Shown: positions 8,908-20,000, counted from the stretch's first letter. The stretch is DNA of 20,000 nucleotides from an uncultured virus (IMG/VR IMGVR_UViG_3300025122_000011) (IMGVR_UViG_3300025122_000011); one strand, 5' to 3'. Notes: generated from the sequence alone by a model not told the origin. Translations and numbers: made by a program.

Positions 8908-9129
8908 ATGACTATCATCACACAACTTAGGTGCCAAGGGTGCCAAGACACTAACCCAGATGGGCTCCGTCCTGTCCGACTCGTCACGAAGATTAGCACA
9001 GGCGAGACCAAGGCCATGTGTCCGACATGCTTTGACTTTCTCATTAGGGTCAGCGACACGCTCGACTACACCGATGACCGCGTCTTCGCTCCAGAATTTC
9101 GAGTTTCACCTCTTGACAATCCGAGATAA
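8908..9129 (+). CDS. small zinc-finger protein
   Basis: CQGC...CPTC; abuts upstream stop. Confidence 0.7.
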   Translation: MTIITQLRCQGCQDTNPDGLRPVRLVTKISTGETKAMCPTCFDFLIRVSDTLDYTDDRVFAPEFRVSPLDNPR

Positions 9130-13561: not shown

Positions 13562-13587
13562 CTAGCCCCTTTTGACTTTTATAATAG

Positions 13588-13609
13588 AAGCCCCAAAAGG
13601 GGCTTTTTT
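13588..13609 (+). terminator. Rho-independent terminator closing the early region
   Basis: AAGCCCC-AAAA-GGGGCTT followed by T run. Confidence 0.85.
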
Positions 13610-13671
13610 CGTGCCTAAAACGAAAGTTAGACGTTTTGACTTTTCTCCTACTTTCTCTAGGAGCAACAACA

Positions 13672-13700
13672 TCTAAGTTGTTATTATTTCACGACTTAGA
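13672..13700. promoter_or_regulatory. solo 29-bp palindromic site related to the boundary element
   Basis: TCTAAGTTGTTATTATTTCACGACTTAGA; same TAAG-N17-CTTA geometry. Confidence 0.65.
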
Positions 13701-13966
13701 TTTTTGGGTGTTTTTAGCTTTTCTGATGTATTTGACCGTCTAAATCACGTTTTGACTTTTTTACTGTGGGGGGTCGATACGGTAAAGGGGTCTCAGACCT
13801 TGTTTGACTTTTTTACAAGCCTTTGTAATTCTTTCAAAATAGCTTGTAATAGGGCTATTCGATCAGTTAGAGTGGTTTTTATGGTTTGACTTATTTGCAT
13901 ATATATAAGTTGATTCTTACTTAAGTCGGTTTTGACTTATTTGCGGTGGGGCCAAGCTCACATAGT

Positions 13967-14053
13967 TCAAAAACAGCTAACCATAATGATAAATGCAATT
14001 CCAACTATAATCATAGGCCAGAACATTGGTATTCTTACCAATTTCTCAATCAT
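13967..14053 (-). CDS. 28-aa membrane peptide (not in ORF track)
   Basis: MIEKLVRIPMFWPMIIVGIAFIIMVSCF*. Confidence 0.45.
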   Translation of the reverse strand: MIEKLVRIPMFWPMIIVGIAFIIMVSCF

Positions 14054-14061
14054 TTGACTTT

Positions 14062-14244
14062 TTACCAACTTTGTCTCCCTCTAACATGGTTGAAATAAGC
14101 TATTGTTTTATCCACTCCTTTACCCTCGTTTTCTTCCTCTTTGTCCTGGTTATACTCTACTCTCCTATATATCGGAATAGGTGTTTTGACTTTTCTACAT
14201 AGCTTATCACTATGTTCAATACGTTCTTTCTCTTCATCACTCAT
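14062..14244 (-). CDS. small hypothetical protein
   Basis: 60 aa in - strand gene run. Confidence 0.55.
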   Translation of the reverse strand: MSDEEKERIEHSDKLCRKVKTPIPIYRRVEYNQDKEEENEGKGVDKTIAYFNHVRGRQSW

Positions 14245-14250
14245 GAAATT

Positions 14251-14460
14251 CTACCCTGAGAAAAAACTAAAGAAATCCTCTTCCGTCCTTGCTTTCTGTT
14301 TCAGGTCCTTGAGTATCTTCGCCATGTCTGTCCACATGAGTCGGAAGATCTGAGCATGTATCTTGGTAGCTAGAGCTACCTTACCCCCGAAGGAGTAAGC
14401 CTCATCTACTTTTTCTGATAGATCTGCTAGCTCACGCAGTTTCTTCGCTATATGTTTCAT
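14251..14460 (-). CDS. small hypothetical protein
   Basis: 69 aa helical ORF in - strand gene run. Confidence 0.65.
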   Translation of the reverse strand: MKHIAKKLRELADLSEKVDEAYSFGGKVALATKIHAQIFRLMWTDMAKILKDLKQKARTEEDFFSFFSG

Positions 14461-14567
14461 CGTAGCTTTCTAGTGCCTTTCCTTCGTAGGCTTGTTCTCC
14501 TTTGAAAAGAAACCCATTATTTTACTCCTAAAACAGTTATAATATAGACTTTGTCCACTGATAATCC

Positions 14568-14921
14568 TTAAGGAAGAAGTCTATCATATTCGTTAATACG
14601 ATTTACAATCTCATTAACAGTTCCATACACTACTATGTAACTAACATTTGGATTAGCATGGAACCCTTGGACAGCTACAGTATGCGATTCTGCTCCCTGT
14701 AACACAGGTGCTAGGCTCTCAGTATACATTACTACCAAATCCTCTTTTCCGTCCCACCCATATTTTAAGAGCTTTTCTTTATCTTCTGGTCGAGCATTTT
14801 GGAGGGCTTTAATTCTCTTAGGATCTATCCATAAATCAGTACGTCGATCGGTTAGATCCCCTGAGACTTTATGAAACTCAAATACTGTGAATTTAACTAA
14901 CATCAGGCTTATCCTCTTCAT
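14568..14921 (-). CDS. hypothetical protein
   Basis: 117 aa; true start may be the second Met. Confidence 0.65.
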   Translation of the reverse strand: MKRISLMLVKFTVFEFHKVSGDLTDRRTDLWIDPKRIKALQNARPEDKEKLLKYGWDGKEDLVVMYTESLAPVLQGAESHTVAVQGFHANPNVSYIVVYGTVNEIVNRINEYDRLLP

Positions 14922-15534
14922 CTAACCTAATTGGGGTGACTGGAACTGTTGATAGTAGAACTACTTTTGTTACATACTCACTAATGACAACATTTCTTTC
15001 TGCTTCAATAGCCCGAATAATACAGTTTATATGGCTATCTTTATATTGAGGAACAGGCCCATAGTGAGTAGCGGAGTATATTGCTTCCTCCAAGGTGTTA
15101 GCCATAACATGTAATTTCTTTACTACAGTTTCTTCTATATTGATTTCGAATTTAGTTTCAGTCGGGCTCATATACTTACCTGCTGCTCTGCCCATCAAAC
15201 GCCACAAATCTTTGTAGCTCATGGGAATTGAAATATCAAGCCCTGATTCAAGCCTAATAACAGTTGAACCTTTAAGATCGTTAGGGTCAGGCCAACATAA
15301 TGTGATGTGCCTCAGATTGATCGCTAAGGGCACCTTGTTACCGTTGTCAATAGACAACCATGCAGTAGGGCGAGAGCCTGAGATCACATCCTGGGGAAGC
15401 TCAAGGGGTGTTGAGGGTGTCTTGGTGATTGCTAAGGGAGTGACCGTGAGAACGAACGCTCCTAAACATAAAACTACAACCCGTGAGCCGATACTTTCCC
15501 CGAAATAGAACGTGGCAACTTCTTTTAATTTCAT
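14893..15534 (-). CDS. hypothetical protein with N-terminal membrane anchor
   Basis: Hydrophobic 'VVVLCLGAFVLTVTPLAI'. Confidence 0.65.
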   Translation of the reverse strand: MKLKEVATFYFGESIGSRVVVLCLGAFVLTVTPLAITKTPSTPLELPQDVISGSRPTAWLSIDNGNKVPLAINLRHITLCWPDPNDLKGSTVIRLESGLDISIPMSYKDLWRLMGRAAGKYMSPTETKFEINIEETVVKKLHVMANTLEEAIYSATHYGPVPQYKDSHINCIIRAIEAERNVVISEYVTKVVLLSTVPVTPIRLDEEDKPDVS

Positions 15535-15551
15535 ACTAGTTTACTTTCCAA

Positions 15552-15707
15552 TTAATTTCTTACTAATGCCCACCAACTTGAACCAGCATATAGCAATCCC
15601 CAAGTTATAAGCAAGCATCCTGCTAATGAAGTCCACCCAACTAGGTGAAATCCTACCGCCAAAGCGACTATCGATATTGCATTTACTACCCAATCTGGTT
15701 TAAGCAT
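15552..15707 (-). CDS. 51-aa membrane protein (not in ORF track)
   Basis: MLKPDWVVNAISIVALAVGFHLVGWTSLAGCLLITWGLLYAGSSWWALVRN*; TAATG coupling to the sigma-like gene. Confidence 0.6.
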   Translation of the reverse strand: MLKPDWVVNAISIVALAVGFHLVGWTSLAGCLLITWGLLYAGSSWWALVRN

Positions 15708-16276
15708 TATAGATCACTCCCTAGTGCTGTTGCTATTTTAGATACTAAACTCTTTGCCACTACCCACGAACACTTCATCCCACGCGAAAGAGCCAGAATA
15801 TTTACTTTGCCACCAGACGTTAGAAACTTGTTGGACTCTAAAATCATGTCCAAGGCTTGTGATTCTTTATGCCCTAAGTTTACCCTAAGATCGTCAAAAT
15901 ACAAGTCTGAGAATGTCACATCATCGTATACCTGCTGATCTACATGCTTGTAATCCATTGAGAATGTCTTCTTCAACATTGGAATCTTTTTGCTGATCTT
16001 TTTACCTCTGTTGTTTTTTGAATGCCACAAACACGTCTTTGTATATTTATCAAAGAGTGGGTTTTCCCACATCTCACTAAAGGTTTGCCCAGTCTTGCGG
16101 TGGAAGCCGTTGATACTTTCTATTGCAGCTAAGCACAGTTCAGCATAGTTATCCTCAAGGTTAGCCACAGCGTTATCACCTGATATTCGTCTAGTGATGG
16201 AGTGCATAAGCCTACCATACTGTTCTTCATACTGTTCCCACTGTGCGGCAGTTACATCTAGTGTTACTTTATGCAT
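15707..16276 (-). CDS. sigma70/ECF-like RNA polymerase sigma factor (divergent)
   Basis: Region-2-like 'YGRLMHSITRRI...LEDNYAELCLAAIESINGF...FDKYTKTCLW' and C-terminal HTH-like 'NILALSRGMKCSWVVAKSLV'. Confidence 0.6.
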   Translation of the reverse strand: MHKVTLDVTAAQWEQYEEQYGRLMHSITRRISGDNAVANLEDNYAELCLAAIESINGFHRKTGQTFSEMWENPLFDKYTKTCLWHSKNNRGKKISKKIPMLKKTFSMDYKHVDQQVYDDVTFSDLYFDDLRVNLGHKESQALDMILESNKFLTSGGKVNILALSRGMKCSWVVAKSLVSKIATALGSDL

Positions 16277-16554
16277 TAGTTCTCGTCCTCTTCGGGGAAA
16301 GTATCTACAAGCTTATTGAGATACCACTGAGCCTTCTTGAGATCTTCTTCAAACTTCTCTTTATAATTACATCGCATAGTATACTTTAAAATGTTACCTA
16401 AAAGGTACCCCTGGAATTGTTCAGGACTGAGCTTCGATTCAATAACCTTGACAGCTTCATGCCCTCCCATTGTGTAATGGTCAGGAGAATTTACATTATC
16501 TTCAGACATGGGCAGGTAGAAGTCTAAACCTAAGGGGTGATTTGATTTCTTCAT
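16276..16554 (-). CDS. DUF3310 family protein
   Basis: 'DNVNSPDHYT.GGHE...GYLLGNILKY..R...K...EDLKKAQWYLNKL'. Confidence 0.9.
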   Translation of the reverse strand: MKKSNHPLGLDFYLPMSEDNVNSPDHYTMGGHEAVKVIESKLSPEQFQGYLLGNILKYTMRCNYKEKFEEDLKKAQWYLNKLVDTFPEEDEN

Positions 16555-16817
16555 TTTTCTAATTCTCCCTCCCAGAAAGTAATACCATCCTGATACTGCA
16601 TATGGTAAACAATTGAATCACTGATAACTGCTACGGTATCATCTGATCCTCCATTTTGGTGTATGGCTAAAATAGCTTCAACACGATTAATATCTCTCTG
16701 CACTGCTCTACGACAATACTTCCACTTAGTAGTCTTCTTCCTACATTGAGCCTGGGAGAGTATGTTGATGAGCTTTGTGCGGATCTCTACCAAAGTCTTC
16801 TCTGCGTCACTTATCAT
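16551..16817 (-). CDS. hypothetical protein
   Basis: 88 aa, ATGA overlap. Confidence 0.65.
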   Translation of the reverse strand: MISDAEKTLVEIRTKLINILSQAQCRKKTTKWKYCRRAVQRDINRVEAILAIHQNGGSDDTVAVISDSIVYHMQYQDGITFWEGELEK

Positions 16818-16819
16818 AA

Positions 16820-16914
16820 TGGTCCTGCCCCACGGGAACTATCCGTGAATGTTACTCGATTTACTTTTCCAAGCCGTAACTAAACAGTTGAGAAACACCT
16901 GACAACAGGGCAGG
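16820..16914 (-). ncRNA. tRNA-like RNA with encoded CCA but no canonical anticodon arm
   Basis: Acceptor CCTGCCC/GGGCAGG + ACCA; T-like arm CACGG-ATAGTTC-CCGTG; fills the intergenic gap almost exactly. Confidence 0.7.
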
Positions 16915-16915
16915 C

Positions 16916-17233
16916 CTATTCATCATACTCTGTAATGAGAGAAGTATGATCCCATTTCTCCCACAACTCGGGAAGATTCTTCTCTACCCATGAAATATAG
17001 TCTTCACTAGGATTCCACAGATAATACACAGACCCACTACTGGTGGTAATAAGTCTTCCCGAATCATTCACTTTTACAAAGTGTGAAGTGGTAATCTCAT
17101 CACCATCTTCAAACTTATCACTGTTATATACTTTGCCGTGCAATGATAGCTTTATAGTTTCAGGAGCAGCGTAAGGATTTTGGGGAGGTCTGGCTACCAC
17201 AGCCCAGTCACGTAAAATTACTTTATTCATCAC
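16916..17233 (-). CDS. hypothetical phage protein
   Basis: 105 aa, 'PYAAPE...LHGKVY...FEDGDEITTS...TSSGSVYYL'. Confidence 0.75.
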   Translation of the reverse strand: MMNKVILRDWAVVARPPQNPYAAPETIKLSLHGKVYNSDKFEDGDEITTSHFVKVNDSGRLITTSSGSVYYLWNPSEDYISWVEKNLPELWEKWDHTSLITEYDE

Positions 17234-17388
17234 TTACTTATTCTTCTGGAGTTTTTATCCTTCAAAAAAATGTAGCCCTTACCTTTGCCATGCTTGAGGT
17301 CTCTTTTACCTCGCACAGACCCTTTACGGCCAGTAGCTTTATTGCTTTTGTTCTTTAGATGTTTATTTGGTTTCTGCTTTAGACTCAT
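17230..17388 (-). CDS. small very basic protein
   Basis: MSLKQKPNK...; start re-assigned (AGGA SD); the longer ORF overlaps the RNA gene. Confidence 0.6.
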   Translation of the reverse strand: MSLKQKPNKHLKNKSNKATGRKGSVRGKRDLKHGKGKGYIFLKDKNSRRISK

Positions 17389-17403
17389 AATTTTATTCCT
17401 AAA

Positions 17404-17515
17404 TGGTGGAGGTGGCGACATCGAAATCGCGTCTTACTAAAAACCCTTTAGTTGCAAGCGCAGTTTATCGGGCTGGTCTTTCACCTGTTCTAGCAATCGA
17501 ATCCATTTCACCCCC
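17404..17515 (-). ncRNA. minimal tmRNA-like RNA (tRNA-like domain with vestigial interior)
   Basis: 5' GGGGGTGAAATGGATTCGA...GACGCGATTTCGATGTCGCCACCTCCACCA 3'; G3:U70, discriminator A, P2-like helix; only 112 nt. Confidence 0.85.
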
Positions 17516-17516
17516 G

Positions 17517-17897
17517 TTATATATCCTCCTTAAGATCTTCTTCCCATTCATTACTCTCCCTCCAAAGTATATCAGCTTCCAACTCTATCTCATCGAGTGC
17601 CTTACTCAAAAAAGACTCCACATCTTCTTCTCCCGTCCAATCAAAATATTGGGATTCACAATCTATATCGCTTCCCTCTACTATACTGCCTACTGCCAAG
17701 CCAGACTCAGTAAACTGAATCCACGCCCCACAAGCAGTTCCCTTGAACAGAGCCTTTTGGATCCTGTGGACAGGGCATCCTTTTTCTAGGCCAAAATAAA
17801 CTGCAACTCGATCCGTAAGGTCTTCGCCCATGGCTCGCTGTTCCTCACCGTGTTCGTAAGGATCCCACGCTTCAGACGGACAGGGTATATGGGTCAT
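17517..17897 (-). CDS. acidic hypothetical protein
   Basis: 126 aa, AAGGAG SD, first gene after promoter. Confidence 0.8.
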   Translation of the reverse strand: MTHIPCPSEAWDPYEHGEEQRAMGEDLTDRVAVYFGLEKGCPVHRIQKALFKGTACGAWIQFTESGLAVGSIVEGSDIDCESQYFDWTGEEDVESFLSKALDEIELEADILWRESNEWEEDLKEDI

Positions 17898-17955
17898 TAT
17901 TCTAATTCTCCTTGTTGGGCATCGAACAGCCTCAGAACTTGAGGCTCGTCCACCT

Positions 17956-17983
17956 ATTATAGACTATTTTTCGAGTCTGTCAA
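17956..17983 (-). promoter_or_regulatory. consensus sigma70 promoter of same family as early promoters
   Basis: TTGACA-GACTCGAAAAATAGTC(16)-TATAAT on - strand; leader hairpin AGCCTCA-AGTTC-TGAGGCT. Confidence 0.85.
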
Positions 17984-18101
17984 TCCCCTGCGCCAAACAA
18001 ATGCTGCCAAGTGAAGGCAGGGGGCGTTGGGCCGTGAGACCTTAGGGATATCATGCTTTTGTGTTTTTAGTTATGCAACTCAATGTAATATAAAAATGAT
18101 C

Positions 18102-19379
18102 CTAATACAGTCTCGTAAGAGCAGGATTACCTCTACCCTTGGAGCGGTCACACTGGAAGTATGCCCAAGGGAATTTACCAAAACTGTTATTGATTGTGGA
18201 TACTAATAGGTCAGGATCTCCATCCCCATCGAAGTCTCCACTAGCCGCAAACGTAACCTTAGCCCATGTATTCAATTTGTTCGGAATGTAAAAGACTTGC
18301 CTATAAGCCCTACTTTCAGAAGGGTCTCCAATATACAGCATATTTCCTGCGTAGCCGGGGTGCCCTACTGCATCCACTGATACAACAATCTCTTCTTTCC
18401 CATCTCCGTCATAGTCTGCTGTAGCTTCTGCCCACACAAAAGCATTACCTAGGTGCAGCCACTCACCTGTAGTTCCAAGCCATGGAGCAGGGACATTTAG
18501 CCCAAAGAGAGCAGCGTCTCCTGTTCTAAGTAAAAACATAGGAACCTTACCAACAGGGAAGATACTGAAAGTGCCATAAGCAACTCCACCATATGATTTC
18601 TGCTGTGGGTCAAGCTTCATATTTGGCCCCTTCTGAGCCCAGATACTACTGTGCTTTGTAGGGGGATCATCCCCCTTCACAATAAGAGTTCCAAACCCTC
18701 CATTGAAATCCTTCTCCCCTGCACTTAAAAAAGCTTGATAGTCGTTCTTTCCTGGGTGTAGAGCACCCTCGCACTTCACTAAATCCACAATTACAGAGTT
18801 ATTTACTGGTTGACCTGGGATAGGTTTGAGTGTGAGAAGCTTATGCCAACCCTTATCAGACTGCAATACGCCTGTCATTAGCTTGCCTAAACGTTGATCT
18901 GTTTGGCCCCACATAACCATCAGATCTTTATGTCCATCACCGTCAATATCTTTATGATAGGGCGTGAATCTTAGTGTGTTGATTAGTCCGTTAGCGACCT
19001 GAGGAACAGTAAAATTACGCACAAACTTCCAGCTATTATTGGGAGTTTCAAATTTGTAAATATCGATGTAAGTAGCTCCCTGTGTTTCGCTAGGAACCCA
19101 TAGGTATCCATCAAAGAACACGGAAAGATCTAACATGCTACCAAAGTGTGTGCCAATACTATTGACAGTTTCACTTAGGTAAGGTGATTTATTTGTCCCC
19201 AAGTAGGTGGAATTACCATACCACCCCCATGCAACAATATCATCCTTACCGTCCTTATTGAAATCCCCAACAGTGGTAAGAGATGGTCCCTCATTTTTCA
19301 AAGGGTTCGGAATTTGTCCTTTTACAGCAAATCCACACAAACTAACTAAAAACAACACGCTTGCGAAGAACCGTTTCAT
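18102..19379 (-). CDS. secreted FG-GAP/VCBS-repeat protein
   Basis: N-terminal signal peptide; repeats GDFNKDGKDD, DIDGDGHKDL, DYDGDGKEEI, GDFDGDGDPDL. Confidence 0.85.
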   Translation of the reverse strand: MKRFFASVLFLVSLCGFAVKGQIPNPLKNEGPSLTTVGDFNKDGKDDIVAWGWYGNSTYLGTNKSPYLSETVNSIGTHFGSMLDLSVFFDGYLWVPSETQGATYIDIYKFETPNNSWKFVRNFTVPQVANGLINTLRFTPYHKDIDGDGHKDLMVMWGQTDQRLGKLMTGVLQSDKGWHKLLTLKPIPGQPVNNSVIVDLVKCEGALHPGKNDYQAFLSAGEKDFNGGFGTLIVKGDDPPTKHSSIWAQKGPNMKLDPQQKSYGGVAYGTFSIFPVGKVPMFLLRTGDAALFGLNVPAPWLGTTGEWLHLGNAFVWAEATADYDGDGKEEIVVSVDAVGHPGYAGNMLYIGDPSESRAYRQVFYIPNKLNTWAKVTFAASGDFDGDGDPDLLVSTINNSFGKFPWAYFQCDRSKGRGNPALTRLY

Positions 19380-19437
19380 GACCTTATATAGCCCTTACCA
19401 AGGGGAAAATTGAAAAATGGTAAAGGTCACGCAGGCA

Positions 19438-19511
19438 TGGTAGATCGTGTAGGAATCGAACCTACTTCAAACAGATTAGAAGTCCATTGGCCTAAATCCA
19501 TAGGACGATCC
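19438..19511 (-). tRNA. tRNA-Arg(TCT), atypical D-arm
   Basis: GGATCGT/ACGATCT+ACCA; anticodon arm ATGGA-CTTCTAA-TCTGT; T-arm GTAGG-TTCGATT-CCTAC. Confidence 0.8.
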
Positions 19512-19557
19512 ACAAGAGCCGTTTTACTTCATTCTACTCAGGAAGGATAGTATGAAA

Positions 19558-19632
19558 TGGAAAGCAAGGAAGGTAACGCTCCTTCTTCTTCGGGACCAAA
19601 ACCCGACGTAATAGCTTCTATACTACTCGCTC
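19558..19632 (-). tRNA. tRNA-Gln(TTG), atypical T-loop
   Basis: GAGCGAG/CTTGCTT+TCCA; anticodon arm TCGGG-TTTTGGT-CCCGA; T-arm GAAGG-AGCGTTA-CCTTC. Confidence 0.75.
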
Positions 19633-19638
19633 AAAAGT

Positions 19639-20000
19639 TTAGCGTCGATGCTGGCGACGACGACTCTTATACATACGATTAGCCTTATGACAACGGGAAC
19701 GGGAACGAATGCTTCCGCGAACCCTATCCTTGATACTCCTGCGACCCTGGAATCTGCCGCTTTTATTAGTACGACCCCAACTCTTCCTACGGCTGCTAGA
19801 ACCCTTTCGGCTAGAACCCTTTCGGAGGCTGCTAAAGCTCTTTCGGCTAGAACCCTTTCGGCTAGAACCCTTTCGGCTAGAACCCTTTCGGAGGCTGCTA
19901 AAGCTCTTTCGGCTAGAACCCTTTCGGCTAGAACCCTTTCGGCTAGAACCCTTTCGGCTAGAACCCTTTCGGCTAGAACCCTTTCGGCTAAAGCTCTTTC
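19639..20000 (-). CDS. protamine-like Arg/Lys/Ser-rich repeat protein, C-terminal part (start outside window)
   Basis: Open frame ...KSFSRKGSSRKGSS...RRSIKDRVRGSIRSRSRCHKANRMYKSRRRQHRR* with TAA at 19641-19639. Confidence 0.7.
   Translation of the reverse strand, partial: KSFSRKGSSRKGSSRKGSSRKGSSRKGSSRKSFSSLRKGSSRKGSSRKGSSRKSFSSLRKGSSRKGSSSRRKSWGRTNKSGRFQGRRSIKDRVRGSIRSRSRCHKANRMYKSRRRQHRR
19795..20000. repeat. 15-bp coding tandem repeat
   Basis: GCTAGAACCCTTTCG and variant GCTAAAGCTCTTTCG, with occasional in-frame 6-bp insertions. Confidence 0.95.

Follow-up and report, generated by a model that had tools for sequence, protein, structure and literature searches.

A tRNA-shaped element between two protein genes of a marine phage operon is a candidate gene for a non-decoding small RNA

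The window analysed here, a stretch of 20,000 nucleotides from an uncultured virus (IMGVR_UViG_3300025122_000011), is the right-hand ~19.9 kb of an IMG/VR record of 31,312 nt that is estimated to be 28% complete. Its genes include those for a large terminase and a portal protein, and it therefore represents a fragment of a tailed phage. Near-identical DNA is present in contigs from many marine metagenome runs; at least half of the sampled words were found in 6 of the 24 listed marine metagenome runs, one of which may be the origin of the record, and contigs of three other runs match without any difference over 16614–16928 (X13), 16738–16888 (X15) and 16662–16871 (X8). No cultured phage resembling the region described below was found among 50,697 phage records, either by a 6-kb megablast or by tblastn with the 105-aa, 189-aa and 89-aa proteins, and blastn of the element itself gave only chance matches (E = 4).

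A 95-nt element (16820–16914, minus strand) lies between two ORFs and, as the original prediction had it, fills the gap between them almost exactly. The upstream ORF (16916–17233, minus strand; 105 aa, phrog_11960) ends in a TAG stop codon at 16918–16916, 1 nt before the element, and the downstream ORF (16551–16817, minus strand; 88 aa) begins with an ATG at 16817, 2 nt past the CCA with which the element closes. Of 36 chosen ORFs, 14 end in TAG. For the 88-aa ORF, the likely ribosome-binding site is an AGGA at 16826–16823, located 5 nt before the ATG and inside the 3′ acceptor strand of the element. Farther upstream, a sigma-70 promoter of consensus sequence (17956–17983, minus strand; TTGACA, a 16-nt spacer and TATAAT, agreeing at 12 of 12 hexamer positions) is preceded by a terminator-like hairpin (18020–18004), both being consensus matches only. 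On the minus strand between this promoter and the element there is no promoter-like or terminator-like site of comparable quality, and a promoter scan found no minus-strand promoter-like site within 16820–16914; a plus-strand match of 9 out of 12 positions at 16899–16926 overlaps the 5′ end of the element. The transcript carrying the element probably starts at the 17983–17956 promoter, and the polycistronic operon to which it belongs is probably an early one. The predicted location within a polycistronic minus-strand unit is borne out by the promoter upstream and the lack of a comparable signal in between. It is doubtful that the transcript is shared with a "mini-tmRNA", as had also been suggested, given that no tmRNA was found and that the hairpin at 18020–18004 and the promoter intervene. 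Because the same two signals lie between them, the element is regarded as separate from the tRNA cluster near 19.5 kb.

Position p of the element corresponds to window coordinate 16915 − p, with p1 at 16914 and p95 at 16820, and all of its parts are on the minus strand. The 5′ acceptor strand CCTGCCC (p1–7, 16908–16914), which begins with C1, makes seven out of seven Watson–Crick pairs with 16824–16830. The 3′ end (16820–16830) consists of the 3′ acceptor strand GGGCAGG (16830–16824), the discriminator A (16823) and an encoded CCA (16822–16820). Between the acceptor strands, 60 interior bases precede a T-like arm (CACGG, ATAGTTC and CCGTG; p68–84, 16831–16847), whose 5-bp stem and 7-nt loop match those of tRNA in length and which directly abuts the 3′ acceptor strand. 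The acceptor and T stems make up a 12-bp stack capped by ACCA, that is, a top half of canonical tRNA dimensions, in agreement with the geometry first described (a perfect 7-bp acceptor, an abutting 5-bp stem with the loop ATAGTTC, discriminator A and CCA). In the interior, an 8-nt linker that is unpaired in RNAalifold (p8–15, 16900–16907) replaces the D arm and is followed by the 5′ strand of a long helix, H2 (p16–25, 16890–16899), an apical domain of 32 nt in the RNAalifold consensus (p26–57, 16858–16889), and the 3′ strand of H2 (p58–67, 16848–16857), which abuts the T arm without a variable loop. The apical domain holds a 21-nt core, TAGTTACGGCTTGGAAAAGTA (p33–53, 16862–16882), which is identical in the window and in the relative introduced below, and both share the order of acceptor, 8-nt linker, 10-bp helix, apical domain, T arm and ACCA.

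How often would such a geometry arise by chance? A scanner was set up to find a 7-bp acceptor abutting a 5-bp stem that closes a 7-nt loop, with NCCA and a length of 60–110 nt, either in a strict form (Watson–Crick pairs only) or in a relaxed form (at most two G–U pairs in the acceptor and at most one in the T stem). Over both strands of the 31,312-nt contig, the element is the sole strict match; the relaxed scanner returns the element together with only the Rfam-type tRNAs at 19558–19632 and 19438–19511, which are the other two tRNA-like genes that make the element the third CCA-ended one, as had been claimed. Among 1000 dinucleotide-preserving shuffles of the contig, at least one strict match appeared in 3 and at least one relaxed match in 99. 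The geometry of the element exceeds chance, with the pattern itself having been defined after the fact. As for the standard models, default ARAGORN reports no tRNA or tmRNA gene in the window or in the metagenome loci L022, L024 and L025, and Rfam RF00005 at E up to 10 leaves the element unmatched in both window 14000–20000 and L025. The Rfam matches in the window are a tRNA at 19561–19632 (43 bits) and a Pistol ribozyme, and a sub-threshold tRNA is located at 19441–19511 (28 bits against a gathering score of 29). No tmRNA was detected by ARAGORN -m on the whole contig or at a 70% threshold on the element, nor by the Rfam tmRNA families at E up to 10.

A degenerate pattern made from two T arms, that of the window and that of the 479-nt contig described last, was run over the metagenome collection and gave seven loci. 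L024 is identical to the window, whereas L022 (1361–1456) and L025 (797–892) carry a relative and are identical to each other in the element; the remaining four (L021, L023, L026 and L027) are unrelated hairpins and were set aside. Pattern scans over viral contigs gave 0, 0 and 2 matches and those over genome contigs gave 9, all 11 being devoid of the acceptor/T structure and of CCA. A covariance model, R1, scores the window element at 108.5 bits and the relative at 116.4 bits; over 30 sources and four whole records (that of L024 left out), it returned only the four known copies. No third sequence type was found in any pattern, blastn or model scan run. Protein searches of IMG/VR with the 105-aa, 88-aa and 189-aa neighbours gave no relatives; a search with the DUF3310 neighbour gave 10 distant loci, all without the element, and one with the terminase gave 8 loci, the element region being absent from five of these records. 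The 105-aa protein has a third lineage, P0002, with 49% identity to the protein of the window and 36% to that of the relative.

In the relative, the element is preceded by a basic 52-aa ORF, a 99-aa ORF and a 73-aa ORF and followed by the 89-aa, DUF3310, zinc-ribbon and sigma-like ORFs. This gene order is common to both phages except for the extra 73-aa ORF, and the neighbouring proteins are 38–81% identical. The homologue of the 105-aa ORF (38% identical) is separated from the element by the 73-aa ORF, whose TAG stop codon is likewise 1 nt away from the element. The 88-aa ORF (89 aa in the relative, 47% amino acid identity) is the constant right-hand neighbour. In the relative, an AGGA belonging to this downstream gene lies outside the structure, 12 nt past the CCA, so that the overlap of AGGA with the acceptor strand is found in the window copy only.

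The element of the window (95 nt) and that of the relative (96 nt) are 78% identical, compared with 57–72% nucleotide identity for the flanking genes, and their alignment (A3) contains 21 substitutions and one indel. Because only two sequence types are known, every covariation count given here rests on this one pairwise comparison. Twelve of the 21 substitutions fall in the 22 pairs of the acceptor, H2 and the T arm without breaking any of them; four pairs are changed on both sides, one mismatch becomes G–C and two changes involve wobble pairs. From the window to the relative, pair 4–69 of the acceptor changes from G–C to A–U and pair 7–66 from C–G to U·G, pair 51–63 of the T stem changes from C–G to G–C, and in H2 a U–A becomes A–U, another U–A becomes C–G, a U·U becomes G–C and a G·U becomes A–U. 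The 7-bp acceptor, A73 and CCA are all present in both sequence types, and ACCA is identical. Pairing amounts to 97.7% in the proposed structure as against 39–55% when the 3′ partners are slid by 1–3 columns, in which case only 0–1 compensated or improved pairs are left. When 21 substitutions were placed at random, none of 200,000 trials on the whole structure showed no broken pair together with at least four compensated ones; with the structure restricted to the acceptor and T arm, 141 of 200,000 trials did as well. These two parts had been fixed in advance of any comparison with the relative, and H2 was picked with both sequences in view. A shuffle control on the alignment, which is weak with two rows, reached the observed values in 28 of 500 cases. 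In the ~1.7 kb over which the two phages share gene order, the 21-nt core is the longest identical run, followed by one of 13 nt. Across a divergence of 22%, compensating changes have preserved all three predicted helices, and the element is a selected, structured tRNA-like RNA within its operon. The original prediction had named a covariance-model search and conservation in related phages as its checks: R1 recovers both the window element and the relative while Rfam calls neither copy, and the structure is conserved, with 22 pairs and none broken, in one diverged relative. Its reading of the element as a tRNA mimic holds in the sense of a selected top-half look-alike with an encoded ACCA and compensating changes in the relative.

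The interior deserves a closer description. RNAalifold pairs p16–25 with p58–67 to give the 10 bp of H2, a single helix at the place of the stacked D and anticodon stems of a tRNA, with the conserved cap taking the position of the anticodon loop. In the relative, the minimum-energy fold is the consensus structure (−39.3 kcal/mol), with pair probabilities of 0.82–1.0 in H2. In the window, two folds are nearly isoenergetic, with −27.8 kcal/mol for the consensus and −28.5 kcal/mol for an alternative in which p8–12 replaces p18–22 as the partner of p61–65. Both sequences retain this alternative helix, one of its pairs differing at both positions, and the two UGWUG copies at p8–12 and p18–22 both track one 3′ strand; the two copies may reflect two functional folds. 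Since the alternative is slightly more stable in the window and is kept in the relative, either fold may be the one adopted in vivo. At the apex, RNAalifold offers two candidate hairpins, p29–32/p37–40 and p41–44/p49–52, the latter with a GGAA loop. The first shows two one-sided changes, both of which improve pairing in the relative, and the second lies wholly within invariant sequence. In another reading of the apex, CTTGGAA is a 7-nt loop closed by two G·A pairs. No complementary site of 10 nt or longer to the core occurs in the 31-kb contig or in the contigs of the relative, apart from its own opposite strand, and 9-mer complements to it number three, about the chance level.

The covariation pairs what would be the "D region" with what would be the "variable region", and the element therefore has no D arm. 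The comparison supports neither a D arm nor an anticodon stem of 5 bp with a loop of 7 nt, and the predicted interior is not a cloverleaf. The claim that there is no anticodon arm was right inasmuch as none survives the comparison with the relative, whereas the interior stems proposed with it, GTTG/CAAC (p9–12/p25–28) and GTTAC/GTAAC (p35–39/p60–64), are present in the window but lose 3 of their 9 pairs in the relative.

The T loop reads ATAGTTC in the window and ATCGTTT in the relative, with a shared pattern of A-T-N-G-T-T-Y as opposed to the canonical TTCRANY. When compared with the T54-Ψ55-C56-R57-A58 motif, only U55 and R57 fit, with A being found at 54 and T at 58. Recognition by tRNA-handling enzymes is not assured, because the loop departs from the motif at 54, 56 and 58. 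The phage's own tRNA-Gln(UUG) (19558–19632) has the T loop AGCGTTA, with the same A54…G57-T58-T59 pattern, and from these sequences the variant loop looks like a trait of the lineage. Its occurrence in tRNA-Gln as well may point to a change of the tRNA elbow specific to this lineage, one that could matter for evading host enzymes. In the acceptor, C1–G72 and A73 are present in both sequence types, and the tRNA pair 3–70 (pair 3–90 in alignment A3) is U–A in both.

We propose, with a probability of roughly 0.55, that the element is a gene, lying within a polycistronic phage operon, whose product is a small tRNA-shaped RNA that acts in trans and does not decode. As a decoding tRNA, it fails by every test run. 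Since an acceptor/T minihelix with a 3′ RCCA is the minimal substrate of RNase P, the shape of the element suggests that host RNase P would cut just 5′ of C16914; processing by RNase P/Z, the other reading in the original prediction, is likewise a prediction from shape. The RCCA 3′ motif is a determinant of bacterial RNase P cleavage according to PMC12710915. Host 3′ nucleases would then trim to the encoded CCA and free a stable RNA of ~95 nt, and the message of the operon would thereby be divided, with the upstream gene on one side and the 88-aa gene on the other. The freed RNA would act in trans: its tRNA-like top would make it stable and give it access to proteins that handle tRNA, and its invariant apex would provide a specific contact with a protein or an RNA. 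Conservation of both the helix and the apex goes far past the needs of a cutting signal, which is why we think that the released RNA would have a function of its own, exerted through the apex; this is the least secure step of the mechanism. We regard the punctuation of the mRNA as a by-product and not as the whole function. In the window, a cut after the CCA would part AGGA from the ATG of the 88-aa ORF, which is awkward for a simple release model.

Could cutting be all that the element does? A pure processing signal, at which RNase P and 3′ nucleases cut the message and leave a functionless piece, is in our judgement unlikely, yet it deserves to be taken seriously. The element takes up the space between two ORFs of a single transcription unit, and in each of the two phages only 1 nt separates it from the end of the upstream ORF, even though the two upstream ORFs are unrelated. 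Furthermore, an acceptor/T minihelix with ACCA suffices for RNase P. But it is precisely the sufficiency of the minihelix that tells against this explanation, since a 10-bp helix with compensating changes and an invariant 21-nt apex, set among neighbours of only 57–72% identity, go beyond what it requires; moreover, a cut at the CCA in the window would remove the ribosome-binding site of the next gene. The precedent is provided by the t-elements of plant mitochondria, which act as such signals (PMC1920247): like the element, they are non-decoding tRNA-like folds between coding regions, and the enzymes that process tRNA ends could define mRNA ends there, as in mitochondrial tRNA punctuation. 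The element shares with them a tRNA-like fold between coding regions of one predicted transcript. It differs in having an encoded CCA and an invariant apical domain, which are superfluous for a cutting signal, and while t-elements are defined by mapped transcript ends, the element is known here from sequence alone.

A more specific possibility, which we hold to be a good deal less probable than even the foregoing and offer tentatively, is that the RNA is a charged or chargeable tRNA decoy that engages prolyl-tRNA synthetase or another tRNA-binding host factor and never decodes. The identity of E. coli tRNA-Pro depends strongly on C1–G72, and A73 shows strict conservation among the tRNA-Pro of bacteria (PMC9976931); at the sequence level, the acceptor end of the element carries this bacterial tRNA-Pro identity set, C1–G72/A73. 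Together with an invariant apex that contains UGG, this acceptor end forms the basis of the idea. If it were true, the decoy could soak up a host defence enzyme directed at tRNA, for instance a nuclease or a toxin that modifies the CCA end, or could otherwise retune host translation early in infection, and the two UGWUG copies would mark a switch between two folds. The resemblance to proline tRNA is a lead and not a result.

The non-decoding RNA proposed above is itself to be weighed against an aberrant but decoding tRNA, either a tRNA-Pro(UGG) with CTTGGAA as its anticodon loop or the tRNA-Arg(ACG) of ARAGORN, and decoding of either kind is improbable. At an 80% threshold, ARAGORN calls exactly 16820–16914 as a 95-nt tRNA-Arg(ACG), but this threshold is very permissive, because it gives 14 calls in 31 kb, and both default ARAGORN and RF00005 (E up to 10) miss both copies. 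The relaxed tRNA-Arg(ACG) model has three G–U pairs in the anticodon stem and a variable arm that is barely paired, and its interior was rejected, with the D stem and the anticodon stem each losing one pair in the relative. As regards tRNA-Pro, besides C1–G72 and A73 in both sequences (determinants in PMC9976931), the invariant core holds TTGGA, which in a 7-nt loop could give U33 followed by an anticodon UGG. However, the CTTGGAA loop needs two closing G·A pairs and tops a 10-bp helix and a 10-nt internal loop, which puts it at a far greater distance from the elbow than that of an anticodon, and the D arm of a decoding tRNA is absent by covariation. The element resembles canonical tRNA in its 7-bp acceptor, its 5-bp T stem with a 7-nt loop, its discriminator and its CCA, and it resembles the mitochondrial tRNAs lacking a D arm in the short connector at the place of that arm; what sets it apart is a second arm made of a 10-bp helix capped by 32 nt. 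The tRNAs of Lak megaphages that are "larger than expected", described in PMC6784885 as unclassifiable and evaluated there as possible intron carriers, are also different, since the element has a covarying helix and an invariant cap and not an interrupted anticodon arm.

Slightly less probable still is a translational structure acting in cis, in which the ribosome-binding site that serves the 88-aa gene is masked by the acceptor helix until ribosomes that terminate on the upstream gene open it, thereby coupling the two genes. The positions in the window suit this well, with the AGGA in the 3′ acceptor strand and the upstream stop codon 1 nt from the 5′ strand. In the relative, however, the AGGA lies outside the fold, 12 nt beyond the CCA, and hence a hidden ribosome-binding site does not explain the fold; the 7/5/7 geometry, the conserved ACCA, the T arm and the invariant apex would also be left without explanation.

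It is very improbable that the element is a decaying tRNA pseudogene, a chance set of hairpins or a protein-coding sequence in which TAG is read. The interior alone does not fold significantly better than shuffled sequences (z = −1.4; 19 of 200 shuffles fold equally well), but compensating changes without a single broken pair and an invariant core are not expected of a pseudogene. Reading through TAG would keep the upstream frame of the window open over the whole element; since 14 of 36 chosen ORFs end in TAG, and the read-through frame of the relative reaches TGA after 6 codons, the element is not coding.

In tmRNA, an acceptor stem, a single-stranded linker, a long helix, a T arm and ACCA follow one another, charging with alanine needs G3·U70, and the encoded tags have hydrophobic ends. 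A minimal tmRNA-like ribosome-rescue RNA, made of a tRNA-like domain, one helix and a very short tag frame at the apex, is the least credible explanation of all: the element does share with the tRNA-like domain and helix 2 of tmRNA the order of acceptor, linker replacing the D arm, helix, T arm and ACCA, tmRNA genes do occur in marine phages (PMC9004378), and a short frame does end at p52–54 with TAA in the window and TAG in the relative, but this A-to-G change is equally explained by a U–A pair becoming U·G, the frame would end in …LEK, unlike a hydrophobic tag, and is not credible as a tag frame, pair 3–70 is U–A in both copies and not the G·U of alanine charging, there are no pseudoknots, the T loop is non-canonical, and neither ARAGORN -m (even at 70%) nor the Rfam tmRNA families respond.

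As a putative non-decoding RNA acting in trans, the element adds to a functionally obscure class of phage tRNA look-alikes and related folds (T4 rnaC, t-elements). Knowledge of non-decoding tRNA look-alikes in phages dates back to the species 1 and 2 RNAs of T4, and to our knowledge the function of look-alikes of this type is still unexplained. The closest analogue in layout is T4 rnaC (species 1 RNA), whose features were taken from the annotation of the T4 record and from a fold of L039 1409–1547 (minus strand). It is also a stable phage RNA in which the T arm stands directly before the 3′ strand, the ends pair and a large non-tRNA body replaces the D and anticodon arms. The two differ in that T4 rnaC is 139 nt long, is located in a tRNA gene cluster, has the canonical T loop TTCGAAT and is annotated as a gene without a CCA end, whereas the element, at 95 nt, is flanked by protein genes, carries an encoded ACCA and shows a variant T loop. 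Model R1 finds no sequence relation to T4 rnaC or rnaD in the T4 locus L039. A survey of structured viral RNAs mentions putative tRNA-like candidates in general terms (PMC10690425), and full-text searches on phage tRNA-like RNAs did not return the family of the element, which may nonetheless be published.

What makes the element worth pursuing is the clear split that it offers between a generic tRNA-like top and a sequence-invariant apex. It is a tractable case, because its structure is small and well defined, its top and apex are separable in this way and it lies behind a consensus sigma-70 promoter. The question it poses is whether such look-alikes are mere cutting marks or whether they act on the tRNA-handling or defence machinery of the host.

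Finally, among the contigs of four marine runs that were compared with the region, one of 479 nt matches only 16862–16923 of the window, at 51 of 62 bases and with unlike flanks. On the minus strand, its continuation beyond the match resembles the T arm, with one compensated pair.

The 95-nt tRNA-like element (window 16820–16914, minus strand) carries the motif UGWUG twice, at element positions 8–12 (within 16900–16907) and 18–22 (16893–16897). In its diverged relative, a version of the element that is identical in two metagenome loci, both UGWUG copies have U replaced by A at the same position, and the 3′ partner that they share changes with them. These paired changes may reflect a fold switch or the trace of a duplication.

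The relative also differs in having an extra 73-aa ORF (L025 894–1115, minus strand) between its 99-aa gene and the element. The TAG stop of this ORF lies exactly 1 nt before the element, as does that of the 105-aa ORF upstream of the element in the window. Because the two ORFs are unrelated and both end with TAG at the same distance, the stop codon itself may be part of the conserved element block. Two genes upstream from the element, a 63-aa ORF (17230–17421, minus strand) encodes a highly basic, Lys/Arg-rich product, a candidate nucleic-acid binder, which shares 81% amino-acid identity with a 52-aa ORF of the relative and is the most conserved protein around the element. Further upstream, a terminator-like hairpin (18020–18004, minus strand) is followed directly on its 3′ side by a perfect consensus promoter, TTGACA-16-TATAAT (17983–17956, minus strand). 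This hairpin and promoter probably mark the start of the element's operon.

The original prediction placed the element in one transcript with a "mini-tmRNA". No tmRNA-like gene was found by ARAGORN -m over the whole contig or by Rfam, and the presumed mini-tmRNA may be a tRNA-Arg(UCU)-like gene (19438–19511, minus strand), with a score of 28 bits that is slightly below the Rfam gathering score of 29. In this gene the T loop is canonical and CCA is encoded, but the 8–9 linker at the acceptor/D-stem junction is missing. Close to it lies a tRNA-Gln(UUG) gene (19558–19632, minus strand; Rfam 43 bits), also with an encoded CCA, whose T loop is the non-canonical AGCGTTA and whose D loop lacks GG; the T-loop pattern A54...G57-T58-T59 is common to this tRNA and the element. 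Neither gene was called by ARAGORN at default settings. Immediately downstream of both is the gene for a 425-aa protein (18102–19379, minus strand) that combines FG-GAP repeats with a hydrophobic segment at its N terminus.

Elsewhere in the window, a Pistol ribozyme match (Rfam RF02679; 8226–8304, plus strand) covers the full model length and, at 38.6 bits, exceeds the gathering score of 34.5. The 9-mer AAAGTCAAA has seven copies, all of them on the minus strand, against a chance expectation of 0.27; all but one of the copies (the exception being at 9031–9039) are grouped in the gene-poor stretch 13571–14193. These copies are candidate iterons or phage-specific promoter elements, and the gene for a sigma-like protein lies at 15707–16276 of the same phage. 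At the contig end, a 15-nt unit is repeated in tandem about 12 times (19795–19990), an array that can also be read with a 66-nt period and that probably explains why the assembly stopped there.
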